This document shows positions 3,505-24,957 of a stretch of 64,000 bases of DNA, in pieces. The stretch's first letter is position 1, and every line of letters starts with the position of its first letter. Origin of the DNA: a plasmid; sequence record NZ_CP015380.1; one strand, given 5' to 3'. Below the pieces are notes generated by a model. That model saw only the letters and a list, made by a program, of their open reading frames with translations, was not told the DNA's origin and did not search any database. The translations under genes were made by a program, and so were the position numbers.

Positions 3505-4167
3505 CGATCTGATATCAACGTTAGCTTATCGCGAAAAATGGTGCTAACAAACATGTTAACTCAAGCTCTCCTTAATCTGATAAATAACTAGATATAATCA
3601 ATACAGAGAAAAATCTTAAGCGGATAACTTAGTCAACAATCAAAAGCATTACCTTACTCCAGCGCTATCAAAATCAGATTGGAATTTATGTCTTATATAT
3701 TTTCCTAGAGCCAAATTTTTAAATCATTAAGAATAAACCACTTAAGTTTAAGGTTTATATAACATCAATATGTTGCATTTTTGTAATTTAAATTATTTAA
3801 AAATAAAACCATGGGGAATTATCCTAATTCATAATTGGATTAACTAGGAATATTCCAAATAAAACCAGATATCAGGACTTTTATTCCAACAACGGCACAA
3901 GCATTGTTAACAAACGATCTGAATCTCTAAGGATAAAATAACAATTAGAAAAATATACCGAATTCTTTTTATTGATTAGCAAAGCCTTTTATGTATAAAC
4001 AAAATAATTGTAATATTGATTTGTTAAATGGATTTATGAAATATCTTTCATTTAATAAAAATCGATATTTAAAACCACTGAATAAAATAGAGTAGCAAGT
4101 ACATAAATTTTCAATATGTGCTGTTACTTATTGATAGCAATACGCTAAATCTCTAGGAATATACAAT
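3505..4167. promoter_or_regulatory. AT-rich upstream regulatory region of the fimbrial operon
   Basis: About 660 bp of strongly AT-rich non-coding DNA precede the major subunit gene. This is typical of H-NS-silenced fimbrial promoters. No flanking inverted repeats suggesting an invertible switch were seen. Confidence 0.3.
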
Positions 4168-4710
4168 ATGCAAACGAATAAACTGGTAATTATTGCAGCT
4201 TTAGCTGCTGGCATGACGTCTATGACTGCATTCGCGGCTTACACTGGTTCTCCAACTACAGGTGAAATTCAATTCCAGGGCGAACTGGTTAACTCTGCCT
4301 GTGGTTTAGCGCCATCATCTAGCCCAGTGGTTGTTGATTTTGGTCAGATCCCAACTTCTGCTTTAGCTAATGGCCAGCAAGCTGGCAATATTCAGAAGAA
4401 TATTGAATTGCAGGACTGCGATACTACTGTGGCAAAAACTGCGACTGTTACCTATAACCCAAATACGATTAATACAGCCGATAATACCTTAGCTGCCTTC
4501 ACTTCTGGCACTGCTTCAGGCGCAGGTATCGGTCTGAAAGACAACGCAAGTAACAACGTGGCTTGGGGCCAAAAAATGACAGCTGTTCAGTTGGTTAACG
4601 GTACTAACAAGATCCCATTTGTCGCTTATCTGAAAGCTGACAATGCATCAGGTGCTGTGACTCCAGGTGCATTCCAATCTACCGTTAACTTCCAGATTGA
4701 TTATCAATAA
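4168..4710 (+). CDS. fimbrial major subunit (type 1/MR/P-like pilin)
   Basis: Signal peptide, Cys pair, and the C-terminal donor-strand motif ending …TVNFQIDYQ. Confidence 0.85.
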   Translation: MQTNKLVIIAALAAGMTSMTAFAAYTGSPTTGEIQFQGELVNSACGLAPSSSPVVVDFGQIPTSALANGQQAGNIQKNIELQDCDTTVAKTATVTYNPNTINTADNTLAAFTSGTASGAGIGLKDNASNNVAWGQKMTAVQLVNGTNKIPFVAYLKADNASGAVTPGAFQSTVNFQIDYQ

Positions 4711-4721
4711 ATCAGCCGTAC

Positions 4722-4750
4722 AACGCGGGAGCATTCCCGCGTTTAATTTC
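4722..4750 (+). terminator. intra-operon stem-loop terminator/attenuator after the major pilin gene
   Basis: AACGCGGGA-gcatt-CCCGCGTT hairpin followed by TAATTTCA. This is the classic position for pilin-to-assembly-gene stoichiometry control. Confidence 0.55.
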
Positions 4751-4788
4751 ACCCTTGGATAGAACATTATTCCTGACAGGGAGACATC

Positions 4789-5331
4789 ATGTTTATCCGC
4801 AGCTGGCTATATATCGCTATCGGTGTCATTCCGATCTTTGCCCATGCGCAAACAGGAAATATAACACCGGGTAGCCTAAGTATAAAAGGTGAATTAATCG
4901 AAGCTGCCTGTGTGATTGATCCACTCTACCGAGAACAGTGGCTCGAGTTTGGAAATATCTCAGCGAGGGATATAGCGCAAGGTTCCGGCGTGTTACTCAC
5001 AAAAAATTTTAATATCAAACTAACCGGTTGTGCATTGGCTAGCGTTATAAAACCCGGCAATTATTACCATAGCGCAAACGTAACATTCACCGGCATACCT
5101 GACTCATCCGATAACCAACTATTAGCCATTGACGGGGAAGCTAGAGGCTTTGCAATTCAATTAGCTGATACTCATGGTGAAATATTAACGCTAGGTAAGA
5201 ACACACCAGATTATGCCTTGATGGATGGTGACAACATTTTGAATTTCAGCGCGTCACTCGTTTCAACAGGGCGAAATATTCGTGCTGGCGATTTCTACGC
5301 TACGGCACGTTTTTTCATGGATTACCTGTAA
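4789..5331 (+). CDS. fimbrial subunit (FimI/MrpB-like)
   Basis: Signal peptide, pilin-like Cys pair, C-terminal Y-x-A-x-A…F motif. Paralogous to the 8811 ORF. Confidence 0.7.
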   Translation: MFIRSWLYIAIGVIPIFAHAQTGNITPGSLSIKGELIEAACVIDPLYREQWLEFGNISARDIAQGSGVLLTKNFNIKLTGCALASVIKPGNYYHSANVTFTGIPDSSDNQLLAIDGEARGFAIQLADTHGEILTLGKNTPDYALMDGDNILNFSASLVSTGRNIRAGDFYATARFFMDYL

Positions 5332-5509
5332 CTCCACGGCAGGTTAGCTATGTCTATCCAAAATAATTCAAGCCGCATTGGGGTGAAAAAAGTAAGCACC
5401 GTTAATAAAGATGCAGCTTGAAGTATGAAGGGAATATCTGATGGGGGGCGTTTTAGCTCGCTCTTAAGGGCTGCGCATGACAGCCGGTAAAATATAACGT
5501 AGTGATATT

Positions 5510-7984
5510 ATGCTTTATTCACCGAAAACGAAAAAAAATTTACTGGCTGTTTTGATCGTCCTGTTTTGCTACAGCGACAGGGTCACGGCCGATCCTATGG
5601 TGGAATTTAACACCGACGTTTTAGACGCGTCCGATCGTAAAAATGTCGATTTAAAGAGATTCTCATCCGATAACTATGTCGTTCCAGGGAATTATCTTTT
5701 AGATATCCGTGTTAATGGCCAAGCAGTATCACAGCAAAACGTAATCTATCGCGCCACAGCTAATAATGCTGACACCAGCTTTGTCTGCTTGACGCCAGAA
5801 CAGGTCGATTTTCTCGCTTTAAAAAAAGAAGCACAGGAGAAAATACAACACGTTGACCCACAGTGCCTCGACATCAAAGCGATCCCTGGCGTTGAACTCA
5901 ACAACCATGAAGGGATTCTGGATATCACCGTACCGCAAGCATGGATGAAATATAACGATCCTGATTGGGTACCGCCAGAACGCTGGGATGACGGCGTGGC
6001 AGGCTTAGTATTTGATTACAGCCTTTCTGGCCAGATGACTCACCAGCTTAAAGAAGGTGATAGCACACACTCATTGTCAGCCTATGGTCAAACCGGTTTT
6101 AACGCCGGTGCTTGGCGTATGCGTGGTGAATATCAGGCAAATTACGACAATGATGGCCAGCATAATCTTGACTGGAATCAGGTGTATGCCTACCGCCCGC
6201 TGCCAAGTCTGGCGTCAAAACTGACCGTTGGCGAAATCTATCTTAACTCACAGGTTTTTGACACCGTACGCTTCACCGGTATCAACATGATTAGCGATGA
6301 GCGTATGTTGCCGCCAAGCCTGCAGGGCTACGCGCCTGAAATTCACGGTATCGCAAAAAGCAACGCAAAGGTCACCGTTAGCCAAAGTGGCCGCGTTATT
6401 TATGAAACGACCGTGCCAGCGGGACCATTTAATATTCAGGACTTACGCAGTTCTGTGCGCGGTACGTTGGACGTAAAAGTTGAAGAACAAGATGGTTCGG
6501 TTTCGATTTTTCAAGTCAATACCGTCAATATCCCGTATCTCACACGCCCTGGCTATGTGCGCTACAACACCTCTATCGGTAAGCCATCACGCTATAACCA
6601 CCAGTTAGAAGGGCCGGCTTTTTACGTCGGAGATTTTTCATGGGGGATCAGCAATGCATGGTCACTGTACGGAGGCACCATGCTGACGGGTAATGACTAC
6701 AACGCATGGTCTTTAGGTCTTGGCCGCGACCTGAATGTGCTTGGCGCATTATCTGCTGACGTGACGCAATCCATCAGCCGCGTCCCCAATCAAGATAGCC
6801 AAAAAGGGATGTCCTTTAAGCTTAGCTACGCTAAAACCTTCGACGAATATAACAGTGCAATCACCTTTGCAGGCTACCGCTTTTCTCAAAAGACTTTCCG
6901 TTCTCTCTCTCAATATCTTGATGAGCGTTACCAGAAATACGACAACGTGGGTCGAGAAAAAGAGATGTACACCATTACGGGTAATAAAACCTTTTGGGCT
7001 GACAATCCTGACTGGGCGACCACCATGTTTCTTACCTACACCCATCAAAACTACTGGGATCGCAGCGGGCAAGATCGTTACGGAATCACGCTTGGGCGTT
7101 CTTTCCGATTGGCTGGTGTCAATGGCATCACGGCGAACGTATCAGCTTGGCGTTCAGACTATCAGGGCCGACGCGATGACAGTTTTGCCCTCTCGCTCTC
7201 CATCCCGATCGGCGATAGCCGCTGGATGGGCTATGACCTGCAAAACAGCGCAGGCAGCACGACTCAGTTAGCGTCTTATAGCGATAACAGCGACTACAAC
7301 AACCTGTGGCGAGTACGGGCCGGTTTAGGTCAAAACGATCGCGCAGCGATGGACGGTTATTACCAGCATCGCTCTCAGATGGCCGAACTCAACGCTAACT
7401 TGAGTTATCAGCAATCTCGCTATGTTTCTGTCGGCGGCACCATGCGCGGTGGATTTACCGCCACGCAATATGGAGCGGCCTTGCATAACAGCAGTGCGAC
7501 GCTCGATACGGCTCGCATCATGGTGGATACCAGCGGCATCGCCGGTGTTCCTCTTAATGGTAAGCATGCTTGGACCAACAGCCAAGGTGTCGCAGTCGTA
7601 CCTGATGTCGTGAGCTACAACAGTTTTGATACTCGAATCGACGTTGATGCGCTGGATGAGGATATCGAAGCCAGCAAAGCAATTTCGACAACGACGCTCA
7701 CCGAAGGGGCTATTGGTTATCAGCGCTTTGCTGTTGCTCAGGGTGAAAAAATGATGGCACTCATTCGCCTTGCTGATGGTTCTTTCCCTCCGTTTGGTTC
7801 AGAAATCGTCAATCGCGACGGCGTGAGCGTGGCCATGGTGATGGATAACGGTATGGCGTGGATCGCGGGTGTGACTCCAAGGGAAACACTCTCAGCCAAT
7901 TGGAACGGCAAGGGCCAGTGCCAACTGAAAATTCCTGACCATAACCTTAACTCTTCCAAACAATTACTACTGCCTTGCCAGTGA
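5510..7984 (+). CDS. fimbrial outer-membrane usher (PapC/FimD family)
   Basis: 824 aa, signal peptide, typical usher length and motifs, C-terminal Cys pair. Confidence 0.9.
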   Translation: MLYSPKTKKNLLAVLIVLFCYSDRVTADPMVEFNTDVLDASDRKNVDLKRFSSDNYVVPGNYLLDIRVNGQAVSQQNVIYRATANNADTSFVCLTPEQVDFLALKKEAQEKIQHVDPQCLDIKAIPGVELNNHEGILDITVPQAWMKYNDPDWVPPERWDDGVAGLVFDYSLSGQMTHQLKEGDSTHSLSAYGQTGFNAGAWRMRGEYQANYDNDGQHNLDWNQVYAYRPLPSLASKLTVGEIYLNSQVFDTVRFTGINMISDERMLPPSLQGYAPEIHGIAKSNAKVTVSQSGRVIYETTVPAGPFNIQDLRSSVRGTLDVKVEEQDGSVSIFQVNTVNIPYLTRPGYVRYNTSIGKPSRYNHQLEGPAFYVGDFSWGISNAWSLYGGTMLTGNDYNAWSLGLGRDLNVLGALSADVTQSISRVPNQDSQKGMSFKLSYAKTFDEYNSAITFAGYRFSQKTFRSLSQYLDERYQKYDNVGREKEMYTITGNKTFWADNPDWATTMFLTYTHQNYWDRSGQDRYGITLGRSFRLAGVNGITANVSAWRSDYQGRRDDSFALSLSIPIGDSRWMGYDLQNSAGSTTQLASYSDNSDYNNLWRVRAGLGQNDRAAMDGYYQHRSQMAELNANLSYQQSRYVSVGGTMRGGFTATQYGAALHNSSATLDTARIMVDTSGIAGVPLNGKHAWTNSQGVAVVPDVVSYNSFDTRIDVDALDEDIEASKAISTTTLTEGAIGYQRFAVAQGEKMMALIRLADGSFPPFGSEIVNRDGVSVAMVMDNGMAWIAGVTPRETLSANWNGKGQCQLKIPDHNLNSSKQLLLPCQ

Positions 7985-8031
7985 AATAACGACCGCTTTA
8001 TGGCGGCCTACTTAATAGCGAAAGGAATAAT

Positions 8032-8793
8032 ATGAACAAATTAACAGTCAAACGTTGGCTAAGCACGCTATGCCTATTCAGCGCCATTACAGGAAGCGCA
8101 CACGCAGGGATCTCATTGGATCGCACCCGCCTCATTATCACGGGTAACGATCGCTCGGCCAGCGCTAACCTGAGCAACACCAGTCCTGATATTCCTTTTT
8201 TAGCCCAGTCTTGGGTTGAAGATGCTGAAGGCAAAAAAGTCACTTCACCGTTAGTGGTACTGCCTCCTCTCCAGCGAATTAACGGGGGGCAAAAAGGCGT
8301 GGCTCGTATCACTAAGACCAATGGCATCGATGATTTACCACAGGATCGTGAAAGCCTGTTTTATCTCAATGTCAGAGAAATTCCGCCTAAACCGACAAAG
8401 CCAAACGTGTTGCAGTTAGCTATGCAGTCACGCATTAAGATCTTTTACCGCCCTAGCGCCATCGTGCCAAAGAGCAAAGGTGAGATATGGCAAAACCAAG
8501 TCGTTTTCCATAAGCAATCTGGCAACCGGATGACAATTGAAAATCCAACGCCTTACTACATCACGATTATTGGTTTGGCGCAGAAAACGGTGAAAGAAGG
8601 CGGAGGCAAACTGACTCAATTTCCTGGGGTATTGGTTGCACCGAAGTCATCACTCGATATTGACGTCACTAATTCCGCGGTGAGCAGTTTCGCGATGATG
8701 TACATCAACGATTATGGCGGTCATCCCGAACTGAAGTACAGCTGCCAAGGAAGCGTGTGTAAGGCATTACCTGCCGATCAGCAGCCTCGCTGA
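8032..8793 (+). CDS. periplasmic pilus chaperone (PapD/FimC family)
   Basis: 253 aa, signal peptide, LIITGNDRSASANLSNTS and other conserved chaperone N-domain motifs. Confidence 0.9.
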   Translation: MNKLTVKRWLSTLCLFSAITGSAHAGISLDRTRLIITGNDRSASANLSNTSPDIPFLAQSWVEDAEGKKVTSPLVVLPPLQRINGGQKGVARITKTNGIDDLPQDRESLFYLNVREIPPKPTKPNVLQLAMQSRIKIFYRPSAIVPKSKGEIWQNQVVFHKQSGNRMTIENPTPYYITIIGLAQKTVKEGGGKLTQFPGVLVAPKSSLDIDVTNSAVSSFAMMYINDYGGHPELKYSCQGSVCKALPADQQPR

Positions 8794-8810
8794 CCTACAT
8801 AAAGGAGGAT

Positions 8811-9425
8811 GTGATGAAACAGTTCCGGTTACCGATAATCGTATTAGCCGCAATGCCGCTCATGTTGCAGGCAGCACCGACCTTTCGACAAGATTTCAGT
8901 CATGTCGAAGGGGAAAACGGCGTCGTGCATTTCTCTGGATATGTTTATGTTGCCCCCTGTGTGCTCGATCCCCAATCTCGTGAGCAATACATCGATCTGG
9001 GAGATATCAGCGCTCGGCTGTTTCATCAGTCAGGAGACCGCAGCAAGCTCATTCCTTTCACACTGCGTCTTCGTGATTGTTTGAGAGGCGCCTCTCAGTC
9101 CGCAAGCGATATAACAAGTTACAGCGTCGGCCAACCGACTCATCGCTACACCAGCGGTGAACAGGCGGTTTCTCTCCGCCTAGAAGGGGAATCGTCTCCA
9201 ATAAACCAAGACCTATTACGTATCCAAGGCGCCGTCAAAGGCGCTGGAATTCGCCTGCTTGATGACAAAGGACACGCATTAGAGCTTAACCAAAAAGCAA
9301 ACACTTGGCTGCTCTCTCCCGGCGATAACGAACTACAGCTTAATGCCGCACTGGAATCCACACAGTCGAGCATCAGCGCCGGTGACTTTCGCAGCCTACT
9401 GCGGCTAATCATGGAGTATCAGTAA
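8811..9425 (+). CDS. fimbrial minor subunit
   Basis: Signal peptide, pilin fold signature, C-terminal …LIMEYQ. Confidence 0.7.
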   Translation: MMKQFRLPIIVLAAMPLMLQAAPTFRQDFSHVEGENGVVHFSGYVYVAPCVLDPQSREQYIDLGDISARLFHQSGDRSKLIPFTLRLRDCLRGASQSASDITSYSVGQPTHRYTSGEQAVSLRLEGESSPINQDLLRIQGAVKGAGIRLLDDKGHALELNQKANTWLLSPGDNELQLNAALESTQSSISAGDFRSLLRLIMEYQ

Positions 9426-10483
9426 TGAAAAAAGTAAATCAGTTTAGCCGCCGTTGGAGTACTGCTCTCGTTCTTGCTGCGCTCGCGTATACATCAAGCG
9501 CCCAAGCTTGGATCGAAGGCGAAGTCGAACCTAACAGCGGTACACATACGTATGACTTCGATCTGGAAACGATGGATATCTCCAACAACGTCGTGGGGGG
9601 AACCATCTCTAAGTCATGGGATTTGGGCGGTAATTTCGGCGTCACCGAATACTGTACTCAACGGATTAATGACGCTCGTTATTACTCAACGACGTCAACC
9701 ATGACCCCATCAACGTCAAATCCGGGCTACTACCGCTTAAATGAATATTTTGACGTTAAAGTAGAGGTCTGGATTGCAGGGAATCGAAGCGAATATGTGA
9801 CGTCGCCCTTTACCGATGAAACCAACCGTTATAGTGAAGCCTGTAAGCCGCCGTCATCTCGTTTTAACAACGTGCGTTCGGGGTCAAAAGGTAAAATAAC
9901 CTTCCGTGTCACCAAACCCGTTATTAACGGTATTGTATTGGTCGATCACGAACTGGTGAAGGTATTTGGTCGTCGTGGATTATTATCCGCAGGAGTTTTA
10001 TCCGGCGAGGCATTATCCACTATTAATATTCGCTCTGGCATTATTACCGTTCCAGATAAATGTATTATTAACCAAGGTACGCCAATTAGCGTCGAATTTG
10101 GAGCCATCCCTAATACCAGTGAAAAGCTAAATGGCAATAATTATGTGCAACAAGTCCCTATTCAAGTTCAGTGTAAAGGGGGCAGTTTCGATACGGGATA
10201 CCTTAATATAAAAATGGGTATTCAGTCTGCCGGTTCTGGTGTGGCAAGTTTTAACTCTGACTATTTGGGTACAAATGGCGCAAACGATCGTCGCGATCTT
10301 GGCATTGTCATAAAAGATTCATCAGGTAGCACGGTAGTCCCCAATCAATTCTACGACGTTCCTGGGTTTAATAATAACCAAGGTGTATGGAATTTAACCG
10401 CGGCACCGATTGCGAAACCGGGCAGTATTATTCCTGAAGGGGAATTCGATGCTGCAGCTACCGTCGTCGCACAGTTTCAATAA
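9425..10483 (+). CDS. fimbrial tip adhesin (two-domain, FimH/MrpH-like)
   Basis: 352 aa. Signal peptide, long N-terminal (lectin-like) region, then a C-terminal pilin domain ending …VVAQFQ. Start overlaps the preceding stop (ATGA). Confidence 0.6.
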   Translation: MKKVNQFSRRWSTALVLAALAYTSSAQAWIEGEVEPNSGTHTYDFDLETMDISNNVVGGTISKSWDLGGNFGVTEYCTQRINDARYYSTTSTMTPSTSNPGYYRLNEYFDVKVEVWIAGNRSEYVTSPFTDETNRYSEACKPPSSRFNNVRSGSKGKITFRVTKPVINGIVLVDHELVKVFGRRGLLSAGVLSGEALSTINIRSGIITVPDKCIINQGTPISVEFGAIPNTSEKLNGNNYVQQVPIQVQCKGGSFDTGYLNIKMGIQSAGSGVASFNSDYLGTNGANDRRDLGIVIKDSSGSTVVPNQFYDVPGFNNNQGVWNLTAAPIAKPGSIIPEGEFDAAATVVAQFQ

Positions 10484-10501
10484 CCAAGGAGAATAGCAAC
10501 G

Positions 10502-11050
10502 ATGCTACAACGCCATCAATTATACGGTGCCGCTATTTTTCTGCTTTTGAGTGGCCCTATCTACGCGCAGACGGAGCTAATTGGCGGAGACATTCGCTTC
10601 CACGGAACCGTGGAAGCGCTGCCGTGCAGCGTCAAACCAGGAGGAGATAAAATCGGTGTTAATTTCAAACAAATATCTACTAAAGATTTATACAGTAATA
10701 AAACGAGTCCACCGGTTCCTTTTACCATACCTCTAGAAAATTGCAGCGATGCCGTATTTAAAACCGTTTCAGTCACGTTTAGTGGAATAGAAAGTACAGA
10801 ACTTCCTAATCATCTGATTATAAATCCTGTCTCTCCAAGTTCAGCTTCTGGGGTTGCAATTGGTTTAAAAGAAAGCAATGGTTCGACAATAGAACTCAAT
10901 AAACCGACTACGGCGGAAAATATTGCTAACGGTTCTATGGATTTAACATTCCAAGCTTGGGTCGCAGGCATACCAATTGCATTGCAAAATGGAGATATAA
11001 CACTGGGGCCATTCACCGCCACGGCGAATTATACGCTGACTTATCAATAA
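10502..11050 (+). CDS. fimbrial subunit
   Basis: Signal peptide, Cys pair, C-terminal …YTLTYQ. Confidence 0.75.
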   Translation: MLQRHQLYGAAIFLLLSGPIYAQTELIGGDIRFHGTVEALPCSVKPGGDKIGVNFKQISTKDLYSNKTSPPVPFTIPLENCSDAVFKTVSVTFSGIESTELPNHLIINPVSPSSASGVAIGLKESNGSTIELNKPTTAENIANGSMDLTFQAWVAGIPIALQNGDITLGPFTATANYTLTYQ

Positions 11051-11063
11051 AGGTTAATATTGT

Positions 11064-11738
11064 ATGGAACTCCAACTCTGTATTTTTGACAGTGACGTTT
11101 CTTTCGCTCAGGGAATAAAAGCAATTATTGATACCAAAAATATATCCACACAATCTACATTGGAATATTTTGATCGTGACTTTCAAAAACTCGTCGATTA
11201 CCTTGCTAGCCCTATTTGGGGAAATAAACAGCAAATCATACTTTGTGATATTGCTAGCCTACCTGATGCACGATTTAAAGCCTTAAGTCTCCTTCGTCAC
11301 CAATATTTGAAAGGTGAACAACGTCAGTTGATTATGCTCGTTGAAGAGGGACAGGTTCCCCTGTTGTCAGCACTGTTCACCGAGCTGCCTTTGGCGAGTT
11401 GGTTCTGCAAGAAAGAGCCTCCCCAAGAATTAGTCAACATGCTGGAGCACCTGCGCTTAACCTCATTTAGCGCTCCTTATTACAGCAGTATGATCCGTAA
11501 AAGCATTGAGCATTACCGCAATCAGGCATTCTCGGTGCCGAGGTATGGCATCACCCATACAGAATGGTGGCTAATGGAGGAAATTCTCAAGGGGCAATCA
11601 CTCACACAGATTGCTCTCAACAGCGGCATCAGCGTTAAAAGCGTTAGCTATCGCAAAAGGCGCTTAATGAAAAAGCTCAATGTGACCAGCACAGTATCTC
11701 TGGCGCAAACGTTCCGCCACCTAACGGGGTTTGCTTAA
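11064..11738 (+). CDS. LuxR-family regulator with degenerate receiver-like N-domain (FimZ/BvgA/EvgA-like), encoded at the fimbrial operon end
   Basis: C-terminal LuxR/FixJ helix-turn-helix (EWWLMEEILKGQSLTQIALNSGISVKSVSYRKRRLMKKL). N-terminal region shows a receiver-like fold pattern (…ILCDIASLPD…LIMLVEEG…). Confidence 0.7.
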   Translation: MELQLCIFDSDVSFAQGIKAIIDTKNISTQSTLEYFDRDFQKLVDYLASPIWGNKQQIILCDIASLPDARFKALSLLRHQYLKGEQRQLIMLVEEGQVPLLSALFTELPLASWFCKKEPPQELVNMLEHLRLTSFSAPYYSSMIRKSIEHYRNQAFSVPRYGITHTEWWLMEEILKGQSLTQIALNSGISVKSVSYRKRRLMKKLNVTSTVSLAQTFRHLTGFA

Positions 11739-11740
11739 CT

Positions 11741-13407
11741 ATGCGCCGAATTTCACCGCGAGCTGGATACTATAGCGCATTAGTACCAGCTCTTTTTTTT
11801 GGCGGTATAGTGATGACCGTTTACCTGCCCAACATGGGAGGAAGTGGGCTATCTTTACCCCTGAATATCCTGAGTTGGATAGCCTTGTGCTGCTTTGCGA
11901 TACTTATCATTCAGGCGCCTAGAGTCTGGCGGCGGTATCGCCGATCAGCATCACTGATCTGGCTTTATGATGGATGTGCGGTGCTGGTTATTCGAGCCCT
12001 ATTGACCCCTTTACCTTGGTTTAACGACGCACTGATCGTCGCAATTGGTATAACCGCCGGATTATCGTTCTACCGTTTATTACTCCAGTTACCGTGGCGG
12101 CGGCAACACCTCTTGGCGGTACTCTCCACAGTGTGGATAGCATCAGTTTTGCAGTGTTTCATCGCTGTTATTCAGCTATTTCATCTAAAAGCAGCGGCGT
12201 GGTGGGAGTTTTCACCCGCGCAGTTACGCCCCTATGGTATTTTCCAGCAGGTTAATGTCTTAGCGAGCTTTATCGCATGCGGCATAGCAGCCACGCTGTT
12301 ATTGCTTTTATATCGCAGCAAAACTATCCCGTGGATGCGCGCTCTGCTGCATATCAGTCTCACGCTGCAAGGTTTTATTCTTTACGCATGCCAATCACAA
12401 ATTGGCTATCTGAGTACGGCGTTTGTCATACTCGCCTGCTTAGGAATATTTTGGCAGCAGCGTTTTATCATCTTTTCCGCAATCATAAGCTTGGTAGCTG
12501 GGGGCATCCTGTCGTTTGCCGTGCATGTTTGGCTACAGTTTCCTACCGTAGTTCACACCGACAGTACTCATACTCGACTGTTAATTTGGCAGCATAGCTG
12601 GCAGTTATTCAGTATGCATCCGCTGTTTGGGTGGGGCGTTGGCCGTTTTGAGTCCGTTTTTCTACATCAGTTTGGCGGACAAATCACTAACGTTGGCATC
12701 AGAACCGTCAGTCATCCGCATAATGAAATACTTTTATGGCTGGTTGAAGGGGGGGATTTACCGCCGTAGGAATGTTAATGCTGTTAATGGCAATCATCAC
12801 GCTTTGGCTAAAAGGGGGACGGCTTCAACGTGCCATGCTGCTAACCGCCTCTCCTGTTGCATTTCATATGATGACGGAATTTCCCTTATATCAATCGGCC
12901 CCACACTGGATTTTACTGATCGTTCTGCTGCGCTGCGCGGATCGTCCGTACTCGACAAGCACCGTGCCAAAGTCCATGAAATGGATCCGTGGAGGCATGA
13001 TATTTTTCACCGTATTCGCCGCCGGTGTTTTAACCCAAACCCTATACCTACAGAATCAGCTAACGATCGTTGAAAGGACTGGCACACAATATGATCTCCC
13101 GCCCCGTACAGTTTGGCAGACGGTATTGCAGCAGGATCGATATGAGTATGATCGACAGATGGGAGAGTTATTACGCTTTAATCACGTTCAGGATATTAAC
13201 GCATTGCGCAATTTTGAACATTGGGCTGCAGGCTATACTCTACGCCATCCAGACAACAATCTGTATGCCGTCCGTATTCAAATTGCGACATATTTAAACG
13301 CTCCAACTCAGGTTGAAAACCTTACCGATGAAGCTCGTTGGCTGTTCCCAGCAGATTCTCGGTGGACAGCGTATCTTGATGCTAAAAATGATAGTGGAAT
13401 AGACTAA
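11741..13407 (+). pseudogene. O-antigen ligase family (Wzy_C) polytopic membrane protein with C-terminal periplasmic domain, interrupted by a -1 frameshift at a G7 tract (12749-12755)
   Basis: Multiple transmembrane helices and the Wzy_C motif …HPHNEILLWLVEGG. Adding one G gives …LVEGGGFTAVGMLMLLMAI…, which continues into the 12772-13407 ORF, for an intact protein of about 555 aa. Confidence 0.65.
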
Positions 13408-14449
13408 AAATAACTATAAATGGTCAGGATGGATATAAATTAATAGATGTTATCGTTGTCAATTGTTTTTAAGTTGAATTAATTCCCATCGATGAAATAA
13501 AACTGGATTTTACTCCTAAGTAGTAGTAATAAAAATTAACATTTCATAACTAGAATGATAGGGGTTCTTTTTTTATGAAATATGTTAACGGTGTATTTTG
13601 AATGAGTATTTTTCTTATGCCATAAACAATAATAGAAGATTACAATTAATAGAAAATACTGTAACTATTTATGGTGGAGGAATTAACTCGATTATATCTA
13701 GTGTTAACTGTGTGTCGAAAGATTTTATTCAGAATGATATATAAGTATCCATCCTTGTTTGTGAAATTGTGAAGTCTCTCCAAGATATTAGTATGGTAAT
13801 TAATTATGAAATAGATATAAAATATTTTATAGTTCCAAGAACGTAGGCTATCGCATTCATGCCATTCAGTGAGTTGTAATACACTGTTGTCTGCCATCCA
13901 TTAGGATGATATATCCGATGAGTTCCATTAACCAGTGATGGTTCACTTATTTCACTTATTTCACTTATTTCAGTGTGTTCAGATTGACATCCTGTCGAGT
14001 TTACATCCAGTTATCTTTGCAATTATATTTTTATACGAGTTGCCTGTGCTGCTTGGTGATAGCATTTGTACGTTTGACGGAATAATATATACTGGTTCGG
14101 TGATGGAATCATCGTTTAGATTCAAGAATACTAGTGATAATGCACGGAACTAGAGGTTTTTTAGATCGGATAATAACACCATAAAAGTAGATGTTCGATG
14201 AAGTTTTAATAGGATAGAGCCCCTATTGCAGTAGCGCAGTGACCCAGACTACTACTAACTGAGTCGCTGAATAGATATCAAATATCATAAATTAACGTAC
14301 AATGAAAATTATATTAATTGAGTTTCTTTTATACATAAAATATATAAGTACCATCAATACGTTGAACATCTTTCGTTTCACGCTCAGAGCTAAGAAAATT
14401 TCATCCCATTTTTCTAATGCAGATAGATAGCCAATTGAATCGCTTTCGT

Positions 14450-14800
14450 CTTTATCGAAACGCTCGTCGTGATTATGCTGCCGGGGGGAACAAGAATCTG
14501 GATAGTGGTCGGAGTTATCGACATACGAAATGGGTTCAACGATCTAGCATCAAAGGTACAGAATGCGCTGAACCTGTACTGCAGTAACAAGTTGGCGTAG
14601 AGCGACAATAATATTGCGGAAAACGTGTTGCTGGGAGTAGCTTTGGGTCGAAAATATTTGTTGTTCGCAGGCTCAGACGAAAGTGGGGAGCCTGCGGCGA
14701 TACTATACTTGCTGATCGAGAGCTGTCGGGGAATTAGAATTTACCAACTCTTATATCTCTTGATAGCCACATGTGGGGGAGCTTTCACGAAATAGCGCTT
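14450..14800 (+). mobile_element. IS66-family transposase (TnpC) C-terminal remnant
   Basis: Frame 3 reads …IAENVLLGVALGRKYLLFAGSDESGEPAAILYLLIESCR…. This matches the conserved IS66 TnpC motif (…DNNxAENALR…GRKNWLF.GSD.GGERAA..YSLI…). It is interrupted by stops. Confidence 0.45.
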
Positions 14801-19116: not shown

Positions 19117-19977
19117 TTGAATGGGCAAAAAATGAAAATATATAAAATAACGCAATTATTTGCTGCCTCTTTAATTGCTAGTAGCTATTCAGCAATTGGA
19201 GCTAATTACTCGGCAGGTGGAGGTACTGTTAATAGTGCTTGTTCTAATGCAATTGCTATAGGACAAAATGCAAATAGTGCATGTGATAGCAGTAATCCTA
19301 ATACTATTGCAATTGGTAACAACTCTTATGCAGGGGGATCGGGCGTTGCTTTGGGCGATGGCGCAGATAGTTATTATGGATCTGTATCTTCTCAATCTAT
19401 AGCTATTGGACTCAATTCAAAAGCCAAGTCGCTAAACTCACTCGCAGCTGGTACAACTGCTGTTGCATCAGGTAATTACTCGACAGCATTGGGTGCAGCT
19501 TCAATTGCATCCGGTAATAATTCTGTAGCTTTAGGTCAGGCAGCTAACGCTTCGGCAGTTAACAGTATGGCATTGGGTACCTCCTCTGCATCTACGCTTG
19601 CTAACAGCGTAGCTCTTGGTAGCAACTCAACGGCATCAGCGGTTTCTGCAACGAGCGCAAATACCGTTGCCAACTCATTTATCAGCGGTAAAACCCTCTC
19701 AGTGGTACAGGCTCCCACTAATGGCGTGGTTGCTATCGGTAGTCGGCAGATACAGGGGGTCGCTGATGGGCAGTTATCGAGCACTTCTACCGATGCTGTA
19801 AACGGATCGCAGCTCTATCAGGTAACTTCTGGGCTAAACAGTAATATTAACGCGTTAGGATCAAGTTTTACCAGCGCACTGGGCGGCGGGGCCGCCTACA
19901 ACAGCACGACCGGCGCGTGGACCGCACCGAGTTATTCTATTCAAGGGGGAGCTATAGCAACGTTGGTAGCGCGCTGA
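19117..19977 (+). CDS. trimeric autotransporter adhesin, fragment 1: signal peptide and YadA-like head (Hep_Hag) repeats
   Basis: Head motifs NSVALG…SVALG…AIG and …DAVNGSQLY… connector. The frame is lost at the G5 run 19945-19949, where one extra G would restore …SYSIQGGSYSNVGSALTRVD…. Confidence 0.8.
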   Translation: MNGQKMKIYKITQLFAASLIASSYSAIGANYSAGGGTVNSACSNAIAIGQNANSACDSSNPNTIAIGNNSYAGGSGVALGDGADSYYGSVSSQSIAIGLNSKAKSLNSLAAGTTAVASGNYSTALGAASIASGNNSVALGQAANASAVNSMALGTSSASTLANSVALGSNSTASAVSATSANTVANSFISGKTLSVVQAPTNGVVAIGSRQIQGVADGQLSSTSTDAVNGSQLYQVTSGLNSNINALGSSFTSALGGGAAYNSTTGAWTAPSYSIQGGAIATLVAR

Positions 19978-22900
19978 CACGGGTAGATACTGGGCTGAGC
20001 GCCCTTAACGGCGGTAACGCCGGTTTGGTGCAACGTACTTCCACCAGTAACGTGGCAACAATGACCGCCACCGGAGGAACCGCGACAGCGCCGGGTACAG
20101 CGCAGAAGCTTACCAATCTGGCCGCGGGGACACTGTCTGGAACCTCCACCGACGCGGTGAACGGGAGTCAGCTGTTTGCCACCAATACCAATGTGGGAAC
20201 GAACGCCACGAACTTAGCCAATCTGGGCACCAGTACGGCTAGCGCACTGGGCGGCGGGGCTACCTATAACAGCACAACCGGTGCGTGGATCGCCCCGAGC
20301 TACACCGTACAGGGAAGCAGCTACAGCAACGTTGGTAGCGCGCTGACACGGGTAGATACTGGGCTGAGCGCCCTTAACGGCGGTAACGCCGGTTTGGTGC
20401 AACGTACTTCCACCAGTAACGTGGCAACAATGACCGCCACCGGAGGAACCGCGACAGCGCCGGGTACAGCGCAGAAGCTTACCAATCTGGCCGCGGGGAC
20501 ACTGTCTGGAACCTCCACCGACGCGGTGAACGGGAGTCAGCTGTTTGCCACCAATACCAATGTGGGAACGAACGCCACGAACTTAGCCAACCTGGGCACC
20601 AGTACGGCTAGCGCACTGGGCGGCGGGGCTGCCTATAACAGCACAACCGGTGCGTGGACCGCCCCGAGCTACACCGTACAGGGAAGCAGCTACAGCAACA
20701 TCGGTGATGCGTTTGGCGGCGTAGACGGCAGCCTAACGGCGTTAACCGACAGCATTTCGGAAGGAACCACCGGGGTGGTGCAGCGTACCGATACGGCGAA
20801 TAAAGCCGTTCTGACCGCGGCCAACGGCACCGCCGCCGCCCCCGGAGAGACGCAGACGCTGAGCAATCTGACGGCGGGCGATCTGGCGGCAGACTCCACC
20901 GACGCGGTGAACGGCAGCCAGCTGTTTGCCACTAATACCAATGTGGGGACGAATGCCACGAACTTAGCCAACCTGGGCACCAGTACCGCCAGCGCACTGG
21001 GCGGCGGGGCCGCCTACAACAGCACGACCGGTGCGTGGACCGCCCCGAGCTACACCGTACAGGGAAGCAGCTACAGCAACATCGGTGATGCGTTTGGCGG
21101 CGTAGACGGCAGCCTAACGGCGTTAACCGACAGCATTTCGGAAGGAACCACCGGGGTGGTGCAGCGTACCGATACGGCGAATAAAGCCGTCCTGACCGCG
21201 GCCAACGGCACCGCCGCCGCCCCCGGAGAGACGCAGACGCTGAGCAATCTGACGGCGGGCGATCTGGCGGCAGACTCCACCGACGCGGTGAACGGCAGCC
21301 AGCTGTTTGCCACTAATACCAATGTGGGGACGAATACCACGAACTTAGCCAACCTGGGCACCAGTACCGCCAGCGCACTGGGCGGCGGGGCCGCCTACAA
21401 CAGCTCGACCGGTGCGTGGACCGCCCCGAGCTACACCGTACAGGGAAGCAGCTACAGCAACATCGGTGATGCGTTTGGCGGCGTAGACGACAGCCTAACG
21501 GCGTTAACCGACAGCATTTCGGAAGGAACCACCGGGGTGGTGCAGCGTACCGATACGGCGAATAAAGCCGTCCTGACCGCGGCCAACGGCACCGCGGCCG
21601 CCCCCGGAGAGACGCAGACGCTGAGCAATCTGACGGCGGGCGATCTGGCGGCAGACTCCACCGACGCGGTGAACGGCAGCCAGCTGTTTGCCACTAATAC
21701 CAATGTGGGGACGAATACCACGAACTTAGCCAACCTGGGCACCAGTACCGCCAGCGCACTGGGCGGCGGGGCCGCCTACAACAGCTCGACCGGTGCGTGG
21801 ACCGCCCCGAGCTACACCGTACAGGGAAGCAGCTACAGCAACATCGGTGATGCGTTTGGCGGCGTAGACGGCAGCCTAACGGCGTTAACCGACAGCATTT
21901 CGGAAGGAACCACCGGGGTGGTGCAGCGTACCGATACGGCGAATAAAGCCGTCCTGACCGCGGCCAACGGCACCGCGGCCGCCCCCGGAGAGACGCAGAC
22001 GCTGAGCAATCTGACGGCGGGCGATCTGGCGGCAGACTCCACCGACGCGGTGAACGGCAGCCAGCTGTTTGCCACTAATACCAATGTGGGGACGAATACC
22101 ACGAACTTAGCCAACCTGGGCACCAGTACCGCCAGCGCACTGGGCGGCGGGGCCGCCTACAACAGCTCGACCGGTGCGTGGACCGCCCCGAGCTACACCG
22201 TACAGGGAAGCAGCTACAGCAACATCGGTGATGCGTTTGGCGGCGTAGACGGCAGCCTAACGGCGTTAACCGACAGCATTTCGGAAGGAACCACCGGGGT
22301 GGTGCAGCGTACCGATACGGCGAATAAAGCCGTCCTGACCGCGGCCAACGGCACCGCGGCCGCCCCCGGAGAGACGCAGACGCTGAGCAATCTGACGGCG
22401 GGCGATCTGGCGGCAGACTCCACCGACGCGGTGAACGGCAGCCAGCTGTTTGCCACTAATACCAATGTGGGGACGAATACCACGAACTTAGCCAACCTGG
22501 GCACTAGTACCGCCAGCGCACTGGGCGGCGGGGCCGCCTACAACAGCTCGACCGGTGCGTGGACCGCCCCGAGCTACACCGTACAGGGAAGCAGCTACAG
22601 CAACATCGGTGATGCGTTTGGCGGCGTAGACGGCAGCCTAACGGCGTTAACCGACAGCATTTCGGAAGGAACCACCGGGGTGGTGCAGCGTACCGATACG
22701 GCGAATAAAGCCGTCCTGACCGCGGCCAACGGCACCGCGGCCGCCCCCGGAGAGACGCAGACGCTGAGCAATCTGACGGCGGGCGATCTGGCGGCAGACT
22801 CCACCGACGCGGTGAACGGCAGCCAGCTGTTTGCCACTAATACCAATGTGGGGACGAATACCACGAACTTAGCCAACCTGGGCACCAGTACCGCCAGCGC

Positions 22901-23760
22901 ACTGGGCGGCGGGGCCGCCTACAACAGCACGACCGGTGCGTGGACCGCCCCGAGCTACACCGTACAGGGAAGCAGCTACAGCAACATCGGTGATGCGTTT
23001 GGCGGCGTAGACGGCAGCCTAACGGCGTTAACCGACAGCATTTCGGAAGGAACCACCGGGGTGGTGCAGCGTACCGATACGGCGAATAAAGCCGTCCTGA
23101 CCGCGGCCAACGGCACCGCGGCCGCCCCCGGAGAGACGCAGACGCTGAGCAATCTGACGGCGGGCGATCTGGCGGCAGACTCCACCGACGCGGTGAACGG
23201 CAGCCAGCTGTTTGCCACTAATACCAATGTGGGGACGAATACCACGAACTTAGCCAACCTGGGCACTAGTACCGCCAGCGCACTGGGCGGCGGGGCCGCC
23301 TACAACAGCTCGACCGGTGCGTGGACCGCCCCGAGCTACACCGTACAGGGAAGCAGCTACAGCAACATCGGTGATGCGTTTGGCGGCGTAGACGGCAGCC
23401 TAACGGCGTTAACCGACAGCATTTCGGAAGGAACCACCGGGGTGGTGCAGCGTACCGATACGGCGAATAAAGCCGTCCTGACCGCGGCCAACGGCACCGC
23501 CGCCGCCCCCGGAGAGACGCAGACGCTGAGCAATCTGACGGCGGGCGATCTGGCGGCAGACTCCACCGACGCGGTGAACGGCAGCCAGCTGTTTGCCACT
23601 AATACCAATGTGGGGACGAATACCACGAACTTAGCCAACCTGGGCACCAGTACCGCCAGCGCACTGGGCGGCGGGGCCGCCTACAACAGCACGACCGGTG
23701 CGTGGACCGCCCCGAGCTACACCGTACAGGGAAGCAGCTACAGCAACATCGGTGATGCGT
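19780..23760 (+). repeat. coding tandem repeats: 2 x 369 bp then about 9 x 381 bp, copies differing by only a few SNPs
   Basis: Spurious minus-strand ORFs recur at an exact 381-bp spacing (20690, 21071, … 23357). Direct comparison of copies shows only NAT/NTT and STT/SST codon differences. Confidence 0.9.
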
Positions 23761-24023: not shown

Positions 24024-24159
24024 CCACTATTGTTAACAATTCGACTGAGAGCAATCTAGTGAAACAAAGCAGTGAGGATAACAGCATCAATATCGGCGCT
24101 AATAAGGCGGGGAAAACCGTGTCTATCGGGGTACGGAAGGTAACCGAATCTTAAGTGGC

Positions 24160-24957
24160 GTGGCCGACGGAGTAGCGGCCAATGATGCTGCCACAGTAGG
24201 ACAATTGCAGGGGGTTATGGGCAATATCAGTAGTCGAGATGATACTGGCTTGGGCGTGGCGAAAGCGACTGGTAAAAATGGATTAGCGGTCGGTGCGGGT
24301 TCGGTGGCTTCAGGCGACTTCAGTACGGCTAACGGTGCGGGCGCGCAGGCCACGGCGGCTAACAGTAGCGCTAGCGGTAGCGGTGCCAAAGCAACGACTG
24401 AGAATTCCTCTGCGTTCGGCCAGGGGGCTACAGCCTCAGGGGCGAGTGCGCTAGCGGTAGGACAGGGTAGTAGCGCCACAGGTTCACAGACTGTTGCATT
24501 AGGTACGGGTAGTCATGCTAGCGGTGCCCAGTCCGTGGCGTTGGGCAATGGTTCAGTGGCAGATAGAGACAATAGCGTTTCCGTCGGTAGTGTAGGTCAC
24601 GAACGTCAGGTAACCAATGTCGCCGCGGGTACGGCCAGAACCGATGCTGCCAACGTGGGGCAGGTCAATGACGCTTTCCAGAGTTTAGGCAAAAGCGTTA
24701 ACAAAAAGATTAATGATCTGGATGATAAGCTGACCGGCGGGATAGCCTCGGCGATGGCGATGTCGGGTATTCCTCAGGTGTATCAACCTAACTCAAGTTT
24801 GGTTGGTGCCTCGGCTTCGACGTATAACGGTCAGTCAGCTATTTCGGTCGGTGTCTCTAAAACATCTGAAGATGGAAAGTGGATTTTTAAAGTCAACGGC
24901 AGTGGTAATACCCAGAGTGACTTTGGTGCCTCAGTGGGGGTTGGGTACCAGTGGTAA
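24160..24957 (+). CDS. trimeric autotransporter adhesin, fragment 3: neck plus YadA-like C-terminal membrane anchor
   Basis: …GTEGNRILSGVADGVAANDAATVGQL… neck motif (needs one extra G at G4 24128-24131 to join fragment 2). Classic anchor ending …SAISVGVSKTSEDGKWIFKVNGSGNTQSDFGASVGVGYQW. Confidence 0.85.
   Translation: MADGVAANDAATVGQLQGVMGNISSRDDTGLGVAKATGKNGLAVGAGSVASGDFSTANGAGAQATAANSSASGSGAKATTENSSAFGQGATASGASALAVGQGSSATGSQTVALGTGSHASGAQSVALGNGSVADRDNSVSVGSVGHERQVTNVAAGTARTDAANVGQVNDAFQSLGKSVNKKINDLDDKLTGGIASAMAMSGIPQVYQPNSSLVGASASTYNGQSAISVGVSKTSEDGKWIFKVNGSGNTQSDFGASVGVGYQW

Follow-up and report, generated by a model that had tools for sequence, protein, structure and literature searches.

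Organisation of the fimbrial operon

The window, a stretch of 64,000 nucleotides from a Hafnia alvei plasmid (NZ_CP015380.1), contains a nine-gene operon at positions 4168-13407, encoded throughout on the plus strand. The gene order given in an earlier sequence-only reading is borne out by the Pfam domains and the confirmed ORF coordinates: two fimbrial subunits are followed by an usher, a chaperone, a minor subunit, a two-domain tip adhesin and a further subunit, and the operon closes with a LuxR-type regulator and then a Wzy_C gene. The first gene (4168-4710) codes for a PmfA/StfA-like major subunit of 180 aa (Pfam Fimbrial, E 3e-17), which is among the better conserved proteins of the operon (59-66% identity over six genera), and a second subunit is encoded 5' of the usher (4789-5331; 180 aa; Fimbrial, E 3e-15). 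The outer-membrane usher (5510-7984; 824 aa; PapC_N, Usher at 513 bits and PapC_C) and the periplasmic PapD-type chaperone (8032-8793; 253 aa; PapD_N and PapD_C) precede a minor subunit of 203-204 aa (8811-9425; Fimbrial, E 9e-15), whose translation more likely begins at the ATG at 8814, the gene callers of the sister assemblies giving 203 aa. The tip adhesin (9425-10483; 352 aa) matches the Fimbrial profile only at residues 202-352, and its predicted structure (AF2 pLDDT 86.4) comprises an N-terminal beta-sandwich receptor-binding domain and a C-terminal pilin domain. The best Foldseek match of this model is LpfD (5AFO; E 7e-21, TM 0.64), followed by CsuE, FimH, CupB6 and PapG. Another subunit (10502-11050; 182 aa; Fimbrial, E 2e-20) and a LuxR/GerE-type helix-turn-helix (HTH) regulator of 224 aa (11064-11738; GerE at residues 164-215) separate the adhesin gene from the terminal Wzy_C gene. 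The latter begins 2 nt after the regulator stop codon on the same strand, as had been noted, and is operonic with the fimbrial genes.

A chromosomal copy of the operon occurs in H. paralvei. Homology between the two (95.5% at the nucleotide level) begins at position 3552, 616 bp 5' of the major-subunit gene, and extends to about 30 nt before the stop codon of the terminal gene, thus spanning both the fimbrial genes and the latter, which indicates that they form one unit of transfer. The AT-rich region at 3552-4167 (GC about 33%) has moved along with the operon and presumably contains its promoter and regulatory sequences; no convincing sigma-70 or terminator sites were found in it and no recombinase is encoded nearby. 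The claim that LPS or O-antigen genes are absent from the vicinity also holds for what was scanned: apart from the operon, the window has 23 ORFs of 200 aa or more, and no domain of this kind was detected in 22 of them, nor in four small ORFs; the other one, 1451-2500, is named ParB in a source annotation.

Class of the fimbriae

The fimbriae had been described as MR/P-like. The mrpABCDEFGHJ operon of Proteus mirabilis resembles the window operon in its pi-class gene order and in the regulator at its 3' end, but an MR/P identity is not supported, since the adhesin lacks the MrpH_N and MrpH_C domains, the regulator is of the GerE rather than the MrpJ-type HTH_3 family, and there is no MrpI-type recombinase. 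Instead, the best-scoring models for both usher and chaperone come from the Salmonella Stf, Ste and Std systems. Among NCBIfam entries, the usher matches NF011812/PRK15284 first (779 bits, below the 972-bit cut-off) and then the usher models for Ste and StdB; the best matches of the chaperone are StfD, StdC and SteC. A homologue that its source names 'PmfE family' shares 38-41% identity with the adhesin. By sequence, the fimbriae are of the Stf/PMF type of the pi class, and the region is best explained as a mobile chaperone-usher module of this type, captured on an H. alvei adhesin plasmid. The Proteus PMF (pmfACDEF) and Salmonella Stf/Ste/Std operons share the usher-before-chaperone order; the window operon differs from them in its second pre-usher subunit, extra minor subunit, LuxR-type regulator and terminal gene. 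In Morganella, a separate operon linked to a homologue of the terminal gene adjoins a true mrp operon.

The regulator cannot be called FimZ-like, as no receiver domain (Response_reg) was detected in it even at E<=10, and a weak NCBIfam match to FimY is limited to the HTH. Ahead of the HTH, the protein has an N-terminal domain with no family assignment. The regulator is confined to the Hafnia versions of the operon and is missing from those of Tatumella, Citrobacter, Providencia and Morganella.

The terminal gene encodes a PglL-family protein

The terminal gene (11741-13407) is split by a -1 frameshift into two ORFs (11741-12769 and 12772-13407). Its product, which had been assigned broadly to the O-antigen ligase family, exceeds the Pfam gathering cut-offs for PglL_A (35.5 bits), Wzy_C (60.7 bits) and Wzy_C_2 (47.6 bits), on which basis a WaaL-type ligase was rejected and the protein is placed in the PglL family of O-oligosaccharyltransferases. 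The same three domains (PF15864, PF04932 and PF11846) make up the general O-oligosaccharyltransferase PglL of Neisseria meningitidis, with which the protein also shares, judged by motif spacing, the PglL-specific residues: the QxN, GxG and HxxxExP motifs together with an Arg and a His in the Wzy_C core. The spacing of the invariant residues (Q170, N172, R279, G297, G299, H327, H376, E380 and P382) agrees with that given in PMC3643930 for residues that are PglL-specific or catalytic. Across 82 sequences, only one signature residue varies, the equivalent of R215 in E. coli WaaL and R224 in N. meningitidis PglL, which is Gln in the window protein and Gln or Leu throughout the subclade of Hafnia, Tatumella, Citrobacter, Raoultella and Providencia. 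The predicted structure (AF2 pLDDT 84.8) has a sole fold match in the PDB, the WaaL of C. metallidurans (7TPG; fold E 1e-4, target-normalised TM 0.54; profile E 2e-13), with which the Wzy_C membrane core is shared. WaaL, however, lacks the PglL_A motif and the C-terminal helical-repeat domain of about 140 residues and is encoded in core-LPS clusters.

The frameshift is caused by a G7 homopolymer (12749-12755), which encodes a conserved E-G-G within the H-N-x9-G-x-x-[GTY] ligase motif. One added G restores a 555-aa product, in agreement with the length expected after frame repair, and the same locus in five further, independent plasmid assemblies (L008-L012; 99.8% identical) has a G8 tract and an intact ORF of this size. 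As the frameshift is found in the window record only, and as all four single-base indels of the window, one of which also disrupts a trimeric autotransporter gene, are one- or two-base homopolymer contractions, it is most likely a homopolymer sequencing error. A true slipped-strand phase switch, in which G8 would turn the enzyme ON and G7 would turn it OFF independently of fimbrial expression, the window being an OFF variant, seems improbable. Phase-variable poly-G tracts are known in the pgl genes of Neisseria, the plasmid lineage carries a run of eight G exactly where chromosomal alleles have GGTGGGATA (others have GGGGGGATA), and a second G-tract at 14775 differs among assemblies (G5, G6, G7); yet the tract is G8 in all five other assemblies and the contractions in the window bear the signature of under-calling.

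Still more improbable is that the gene is an inactive relic, in the window strain or in the whole subclade, that is merely carried with the operon. The frameshift, the substituted Arg and a dN/dS above that of the neighbouring genes would fit such a relic, but the ratio relative to the chromosomal copy is still 0.26, which indicates purifying selection, the other signature residues are retained, and 14 members of the subclade, spanning seven genera, have a full-length ORF. Together with the intact gene in the sister assemblies, this dN/dS argues that the gene is functional. It nevertheless diverges faster than the fimbrial genes (91% amino-acid identity against 97-99%; across genera, 34-41% where the usher, chaperone and major subunit have 59-73%), a pattern consistent with its adapting to the glycans of the host and not to the fimbrial proteins.

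Linkage of PglL genes to chaperone-usher operons

Among Enterobacterales, an usher lies within 7 kb in 48 of the 58 PglL-family loci, against a background that we roughly estimate at about 5%. Homologues thus also occur outside LPS and ECA clusters, which makes fimbria-linked glycosylation a reasonable hypothesis. The PglL gene lies downstream on the same strand in 33 of the linked loci, divergently in nine, upstream in four and inside the operon in two, in one case (L036) between the chaperone and the minor subunits. All eight linked ushers tested best match NF011812 (962-1207 bits), so that the linkage is conserved to one usher lineage. Two PglL copies, each beside its own operon, are found in Y. 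ruckeri, Y. massiliensis and S. proteamaculans, suggesting dedicated enzymes, unlike the general PglL of N. meningitidis, which is likewise encoded outside the LPS cluster but is unlinked to its substrates. None of the 22 loci in Vibrionaceae (Vibrio), Psychromonas, Motilimonas and Aeromonadaceae (Aeromonas) is usher-linked. Operons of the same fimbrial type also occur without the gene: it is missing, with no remnants left, in 35 of 56 metagenome operons anchored on the adhesin, so that the fimbrial operon works without it in many lineages. The PMF-type operons examined in Proteus and Erwinia sorbitola lack it as well. The view that the arrangement is not a standard one stands in part: to our knowledge the textbook E. 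coli and Salmonella fimbrial operons have no such terminal gene, but the pairing is common elsewhere in Enterobacterales. No function for it was reported in the literature searched.

Known relatives encoded beside filament genes include the type IV pilin-linked transferases (P. aeruginosa PilO/TfpO, A. baylyi PglL/PglS with ComP, and the 'pilin'-context homologues in Table 1 of PMC3643930), whose genes, like that in the window, adjoin a filament-subunit gene and are usually co-oriented with it. In A. baylyi, the enzyme encoded next to the pilin gene acts on that pilin, ComP (PMC3643930). The neighbours in the window differ in being Ig-like chaperone-usher subunits, which assemble by donor-strand exchange and exit through the usher pore. 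The Yersinia homologues are given the context 'type IV pilin homologue' in PMC3643930; in the Yersinia loci L025, L028, L029, L031, L039 and L044, the PglL neighbours are Fimbrial-domain genes and an usher, as well as a chaperone except in the truncated L029 cluster. Experimental data exist for just one relative, the PglL homologue WaaLxs (Ye777) of Y. enterocolitica, which is not known to have a protein substrate. As summarised in PMC3643930, it plays no role in native LPS (Pinta et al. 2012) and complements an E. coli waaL deletion, so that lipid A-core ligation is possible. WaaLxs differs from the window protein in that it retains the canonical Arg and is transcribed divergently instead of ending the operon. 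A Y. proxima protein of the same name, WaaL-xs (P0056), belongs to the family of the window protein (29-34% identity), and in Y. proxima (L039) the gene of this family is divergent from a Stf-type operon.

Proposed role of the terminal gene

With about even confidence, we propose that the terminal gene codes for a fimbria-dedicated O-oligosaccharyltransferase, comparable to the enzymes encoded beside type IV pilin genes. Co-transcribed with the subunits and located in the inner membrane, the enzyme would use a short, host-made undecaprenyl-pyrophosphate-linked glycan, such as an O-unit, so that the operon would need no glycan genes of its own. In the periplasm, the glycan would be moved en bloc onto Ser/Thr residues of at least one fimbrial protein that has been exported by Sec and is about to be, or is being, captured by the chaperone and passed through the usher. 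A candidate for binding the acceptor is the periplasmic helical-repeat domain at the C-terminus. Some of the fimbriae, or a product made along with them, may then be sugar-coated. The PglL motifs, the linkage to ushers of one lineage, the paralogues, the transfer unit, the intact gene, WaaLxs and the ComP precedent count in favour of this role, whereas the frequent absence of the gene, the Arg to Gln substitution and the complementation by WaaLxs count against it. So does the lack of an acceptor-site signature in a comparison of de-duplicated operons from this fimbrial family, 13 with and 20 without the PglL gene: four Ser/Thr columns are conserved only in the positive operons and eight show the reverse pattern, and sister pairs are alike at these columns. 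The second pre-usher subunit is present in all 13 positive operons and in nine of the 20 negative ones. We further reason that glycosylated subunits would need to pass through the narrow usher pore; no glycosylated fimbria of the chaperone-usher type is known to us, and literature searches found none.

It is possible, though less likely, that the enzyme, while made together with the fimbriae, has a non-fimbrial acceptor and serves as an alternative lipid A-core ligase or as a general O-oligosaccharyltransferase of other periplasmic or surface proteins. The cell surface would then be remodelled during fimbriation, for instance by diverting undecaprenyl-pyrophosphate-linked O-units and unmasking short fimbriae. 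The waaL complementation reported for WaaLxs, the missing acceptor signature, the dispensability of the gene and its faster divergence would all agree with such an acceptor. On the other hand, WaaLxs has no role in native Yersinia LPS according to the same summary and the PglL-specific motifs are present, while several paralogues per genome, each tied to its own operon, and the location of the gene inside the operon in two of the 58 loci are hard to explain for a general enzyme. The general PglLs of Vibrio and Psychromonas, moreover, are not fimbria-linked.

Organisation of the fimbrial operon

The operon at 4168-13407 comprises nine genes in one orientation, separated by tiny intergenic gaps. 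Pfam searches place two fimbrial subunits (4168-4710 and 4789-5331) before an usher with PapC_N, Usher and PapC_C domains (5510-7984), a PapD chaperone (8032-8793), a third fimbrial subunit (8811-9425), a 352-aa protein with a Fimbrial domain at residues 202-352 only (9425-10483), a fourth subunit (10502-11050), a 224-aa protein with a GerE helix-turn-helix at residues 164-215 (11064-11738) and a Wzy_C gene read as two ORFs (11741-13407). The ORFs, Pfam matches and tip adhesin fold bear out the gene list and coordinates of the sequence-only reading. The N-terminal domain of the 352-aa protein has no Pfam match and an LpfD-like fold. In its AF2 model (pLDDT 86.4) the protein forms two beta-rich domains, with the LpfD adhesin as best fold match (5AFO; E 7e-21, TM 0.64), followed by CsuE, FimH, CupB6 and PapG; it is a genuine tip adhesin.

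Two labels given to the operon from its sequence have been dropped. It was called MR/P-like, but MrpH_N and MrpH_C domains and an MrpI-type recombinase are missing, the regulator is of the GerE rather than the HTH_3 (MrpJ) type, and only the pi-class order of usher then chaperone is held in common with MR/P fimbriae. Its regulator was called FimZ-like; the helix-turn-helix is present, but no Response_reg receiver match was obtained even at E<=10, response-regulator models giving low-scoring partial alignments only. This GerE-type regulator is found only in Hafnia versions of the operon. The usher, which precedes the chaperone, finds its best NCBIfam match in NF011812 at 779 bits (cut-off 972), a cut-off passed by seven of eight other ushers linked to the Wzy_C-type gene. 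The closest named relatives of these fimbriae are the Stf, Ste and Std models and PMF.

Plasmid setting and mobility

The operon is carried by an 87.6-kb Hafnia alvei plasmid, just downstream of ParA and ParB genes (271-2500), and its GC content (42-53%) exceeds that of the flanks (33-39%). The remainder of the window encodes a trimeric autotransporter adhesin, a 2180-aa inverse autotransporter of the intimin/invasin type (51769-58311; LysM, IAT_beta and Big_2), an EAL protein and transfer-gene fragments. Together with the fimbriae, the two autotransporters make the plasmid adhesin-rich. No LPS or O-antigen domains were found among the 22 scanned of the 23 larger non-operon ORFs of the window, the remaining one being named ParB, in agreement with the earlier view that such genes do not lie nearby. 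This is an adhesin plasmid without LPS or O-antigen genes.

At the nucleotide level, 3552-13375 is 95.5% identical to a chromosomal locus of H. paralvei. The homology begins 616 bp 5' of the first fimbrial gene and ends about 30 nt before the Wzy_C stop codon, boundaries which indicate that the regulatory region and the seven fimbrial genes moved as one unit with the regulator and the Wzy_C gene, the last of these forming the 3' edge. A PLSDB search with the operon and an Rfam search returned no match, and promoter and terminator scans gave fewer sites than shuffled sequence. An invertible promoter was considered and rejected, the upstream inverted repeats being weak and in AT-rich DNA, with no recombinase ORF.

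Several smaller features were observed around the operon. Just 3' of it, at 13942-13972, lie 3.4 copies of a 9-bp tandem repeat, TTCACTTAT, one copy more than in the sister assemblies. Transfer genes at 30704-32254 and 33306-35588 appear decayed or mis-assembled: one ORF joins DUF932 to coupling-protein domains of the TraD/TrwB type, and a second encodes a TraI-like helicase that is truncated. A transposase of the IS110 family is encoded at 36258-36968. The EAL-domain protein is encoded at 25835-26605, and in Citrobacter werkmanii (locus L004, 11670-12389) another EAL gene begins 2 nt past the homologue of the Wzy_C gene; such genes may connect these fimbrial operons to c-di-GMP control.

Integrity of the last gene

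A G7 run at 12749-12755 splits the Wzy_C gene into its two ORFs, and the addition of one G yields a single 555-aa product. In each of five independent assemblies of this plasmid locus (L008-L012; 99.8% identical) the run is G8 and the gene is intact; the chromosomal alleles have GGTGGGATA or GGGGGGATA here. Four single-base indels distinguish the window from these assemblies (G7 against G8 at 12749, G5 against G6 or G7 at 14775, T6 against T7 at 16877 and G5 against G6 at 19945), each a homopolymer contraction in the window, and that at 19945 also disrupts the trimeric autotransporter gene. G7 could alternatively be a true slipped-strand OFF variant of the gene; this is improbable, since a pattern made up of contractions only is that of homopolymer under-calling, and the frameshift is most likely a sequencing artefact. 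The pattern suggests that the record carries systematic homopolymer errors, so that further split genes in it could likewise be artefacts.

The YadA-type trimeric autotransporter adhesin (19117-24957) is read as three ORFs of 286, 1368 and 265 aa; the first break falls at the G5/G6 difference at 19945, and L008 has it called as one 1815-aa product. A non-coding G-tract at 14770-14780 has five G in the window, six in L011 and seven in L008 and L010, and is either truly hypervariable or subject to repeated sequencing error.

Assignment to the PglL family

In the repaired protein, three domains score above their Pfam cut-offs: PglL_A (PF15864; residues 164-189, 35.5 bits against 25), the Wzy_C core (PF04932; residues 208-344, 60.7 bits against 31.7) and the C-terminal Wzy_C_2 (PF11846; residues 366-542, 47.6 bits against 28.5). 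The profile check called for by the sequence-only reading places the product in the PglL family. The PglL_A motif was built by Schulz et al. to tell protein O-oligosaccharyltransferases from WaaL ligases (PMC3643930). The WaaL O-antigen ligase lies in the core-LPS (waa) cluster and is without PglL motifs, whereas the window gene lies outside such a cluster and has PglL_A. An orthologue is already listed at NCBI as 'PglL family O-oligosaccharyltransferase [Hafnia alvei]'.

Across 82 family members, Q170, N172, R279, G297, G299, H327, N328, E329, H376, E380 and P382 are fully or almost fully conserved; Q170, N172, G297, G299, H376, E380 and P382 are invariant in 24 sequences and conserved in all but one of the 82. 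For Neisseria meningitidis PglL the residues given are Q178, N180, R298, G316, G318, H349, H400, E404 and P406, of which R298 and H349 are common to WaaL and the other seven are PglL-specific (PMC3643930). From the matching motif spacing, the conserved residues of the window protein would correspond to these. R279 and H327, the equivalents of the WaaL-shared Arg and His, are invariant, and an H-N-x9-G-x-x-T motif occupies residues 327-341. The canonical Arg of E. coli WaaL (R215) and N. meningitidis PglL (R224) is missing, its aligned position being Q220. In a subclade of 14 members from Hafnia, Tatumella, Citrobacter, Raoultella, Klebsiella, Rosenbergiella and Providencia this position is always Gln or Leu; the remaining 68 sequences have Arg there. 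A search of the subclade for a basic residue that might compensate gave none.

The AF2 model of the protein, a confident one (pLDDT 84.8, pTM 0.86), resembles only the WaaL ligase 7TPG among solved structures (profile E 2e-13; Foldseek E 1e-4). A single-sequence search of the PDB gave no match, the profile search gave 7TPG only, and no PglL structure was among the matches. Five helices follow the last membrane helix in the model, with only weak TPR-like fold hits, and might speculatively form a protein-binding module.

Linkage to chaperone-usher operons

The homologues in Tatumella, Citrobacter, Providencia and Morganella (44-28% identity) are each the last gene of a chaperone-usher operon. 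Linkage was surveyed in one genome per species for the best 80 of 427 confirmed genome hits, each locus being annotated with our own usher, chaperone and subunit profiles. An usher lies within 7 kb of the PglL gene in 48 of the 58 Enterobacterales loci, against a rough background estimate of about 5% for lying so near an usher by chance. The gene is 3' of the operon on the same strand, as in the window, in 33 of the 58, divergent from the first operon gene in nine, immediately upstream in four and inside the operon in two; in the latter it stands between the chaperone and the minor subunits (L036) or precedes a 325-aa gene matching our subunit profile (L088). One further locus adjoins a fimbrial gene on a short contig, and nine have no operon, three of these with short flanks. 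No linkage to an operon occurs in the 22 loci from Vibrio, Photobacterium, Psychromonas, Motilimonas, Aeromonas and Pseudaeromonas.

The eight linked ushers tested, drawn from all four arrangements, score best against NF011812 (962-1207 bits), which ties the enzyme to one fimbrial lineage. Yersinia ruckeri, Y. massiliensis and Serratia proteamaculans each have two paralogues, and every paralogue is paired with a separate operon. Three Yersinia PglL homologues have been assigned a 'pilin' context, defined as a type IV pilin homologue (PMC3643930); in the Yersinia loci examined here the neighbours are chaperone-usher genes, with mutS on the opposite side in Y. proxima. The pattern that would have counted against the sequence-only reading, homologues always part of LPS or ECA clusters, is not seen, since 48 of 58 Enterobacterales loci lie beside fimbrial ushers.

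The enzyme as an optional accessory

The adhesin homologues include a 'PmfE family' protein, and a PglL gene is absent from the PMF-type operons examined in Proteus and Erwinia sorbitola. In an adhesin-anchored metagenome scan, 56 operons had a flank long enough to judge, and the gene was present in 21 and absent from 35 (eight and 16 after de-duplication). A search downstream of PglL-negative operons revealed no PglL remnants in 38 loci. Positive and negative operons are interleaved on the usher tree, including two sister pairs. The fimbriae do not require the enzyme, and its gene is accordingly an optional accessory, gained or lost several times.

Between the plasmid and H. paralvei copies, protein identity is 97-99% for the fimbrial genes and 91% for PglL, with dN/dS of 0.26 for PglL and 0.05-0.15 for the other operon genes; the former is under purifying selection, though of a looser form. 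Across genera PglL is also the least conserved member of the operon (34-41%, against 59-73% for major subunit, usher and chaperone). This faster change would be in keeping with adaptation to glycan donors that differ between hosts. Within fimbrial operons it is usually the major pilin that varies most; the major subunit here (4168-4710 and orthologues) is unusually conserved across genera, at 59-66% identity and near usher level, in PglL-positive and PglL-negative operons alike.

Candidate acceptors and function

Each operon protein was aligned between 13 PglL-positive and 20 PglL-negative de-duplicated operons, and Ser/Thr residues conserved only where the enzyme is present were sought. Four columns fit this pattern (T93 of the major subunit, S120 of the minor subunit, S580 and S795 of the usher) and eight show the reverse; since the four are outnumbered and sister pairs do not differ at the two subunit columns inspected, they were rejected as phylogenetic noise. 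At these two columns, the sister pair L157/L158 is identical and the pair L161/L168 uninformative. A Ser in the 'DNAS' loop of the major subunit was PglL-specific against four controls and lost this property against the 20 PglL-negative operons. The Ser/Thr/Pro-rich loop of the adhesin (residues 86-102) is conserved with and without PglL, and is well ordered rather than disordered in the AF2 model (pLDDT about 93). No acceptor signature was thus detectable in any operon protein across these 33 operons, which somewhat weakens the idea of subunit glycosylation. PglL enzymes are known for loose acceptor requirements, and for this reason the idea survives.

On the best explanation, with about an even chance of being right, the protein is a fimbria-dedicated PglL-type O-oligosaccharyltransferase, analogous to enzymes encoded beside type IV pilin genes. 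As in filament-linked enzymes of the TfpO/PglS type, the gene adjoins and is co-oriented with a filament subunit gene; there the neighbour is a type IV pilin, here a set of PF00419 Fimbrial subunits with their PapC usher and PapD chaperone. The main rival is an enzyme co-regulated with the fimbriae but acting on LPS or other proteins. According to the account of Pinta et al. 2012 in PMC3643930, WaaLxs, the Yersinia enterocolitica homologue, complements E. coli lacking waaL but has no role in the native LPS, and the same work is cited there as having earlier speculated that WaaLxs could be a protein O-oligosaccharyltransferase. In the literature covered, which extends to few subscription journals, no work on the function of a PglL-type enzyme within a chaperone-usher system was found, and none on 'WaaL-xs'. 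Action on LPS or other proteins is considered rather unlikely. Of the sequence-only interpretation, a PglL-family, fimbria-linked gene stands, without the MR/P and FimZ labels. The broader proposal, its probability a little short of even, is that a dedicated PglL, one subclade of which is without the canonical Arg, may be a widespread, mobile and optional add-on to Enterobacterales fimbriae of the Stf/PMF type, decorating subunits or the tip adhesin with host Und-PP-linked glycans.

Enteric bacteria adhere chiefly through chaperone-usher fimbriae, which are also vaccine targets and, to our knowledge, are generally regarded as unglycosylated. If the proposal is true, the system would be the first to O-glycosylate chaperone-usher pili en bloc, tying fimbrial antigenicity or adhesion to the O-antigen repertoire of the host, and the operon-borne enzyme would offer a new means of varying the surface, masking it from immunity or shielding it from proteases. 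It would also account for hundreds of genes that at present bear the label 'O-antigen ligase family protein' in Citrobacter, Klebsiella aerogenes, Raoultella, Providencia, Morganella, Serratia, Yersinia and Erwinia, and could be a source of new enzyme-acceptor pairs for making bioconjugate vaccines.

Atypical loci

Copies without fimbrial linkage occur in the Serratia fonticola group, S. nevei and S. montpellierensis (L032, L033, L035, L068 and L086), with the same neighbours within each group, none matching our fimbrial profiles; they may be general O-oligosaccharyltransferases descended from fimbria-linked ancestors. In Edwardsiella anguillarum (L050, about 9842-11541) the fimbria-adjacent PglL-family gene is disrupted, a 164-aa in-frame piece being left from the start of the match. 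L058, labelled Pseudomonas lundensis I31, groups within the S. proteamaculans/S. quinivorans loci on the PglL tree and has the same layout, and the assembly is probably contaminated or mislabelled. In Morganella morganii (L006/L007, 1-12300), the PglL-linked operon lies directly 3' of a true mrp operon, with MrpH domains followed by an HTH_3 regulator. The PglL-linked operon there is flanked by two small Phage_integrase genes, and could therefore be controlled by an invertible element.
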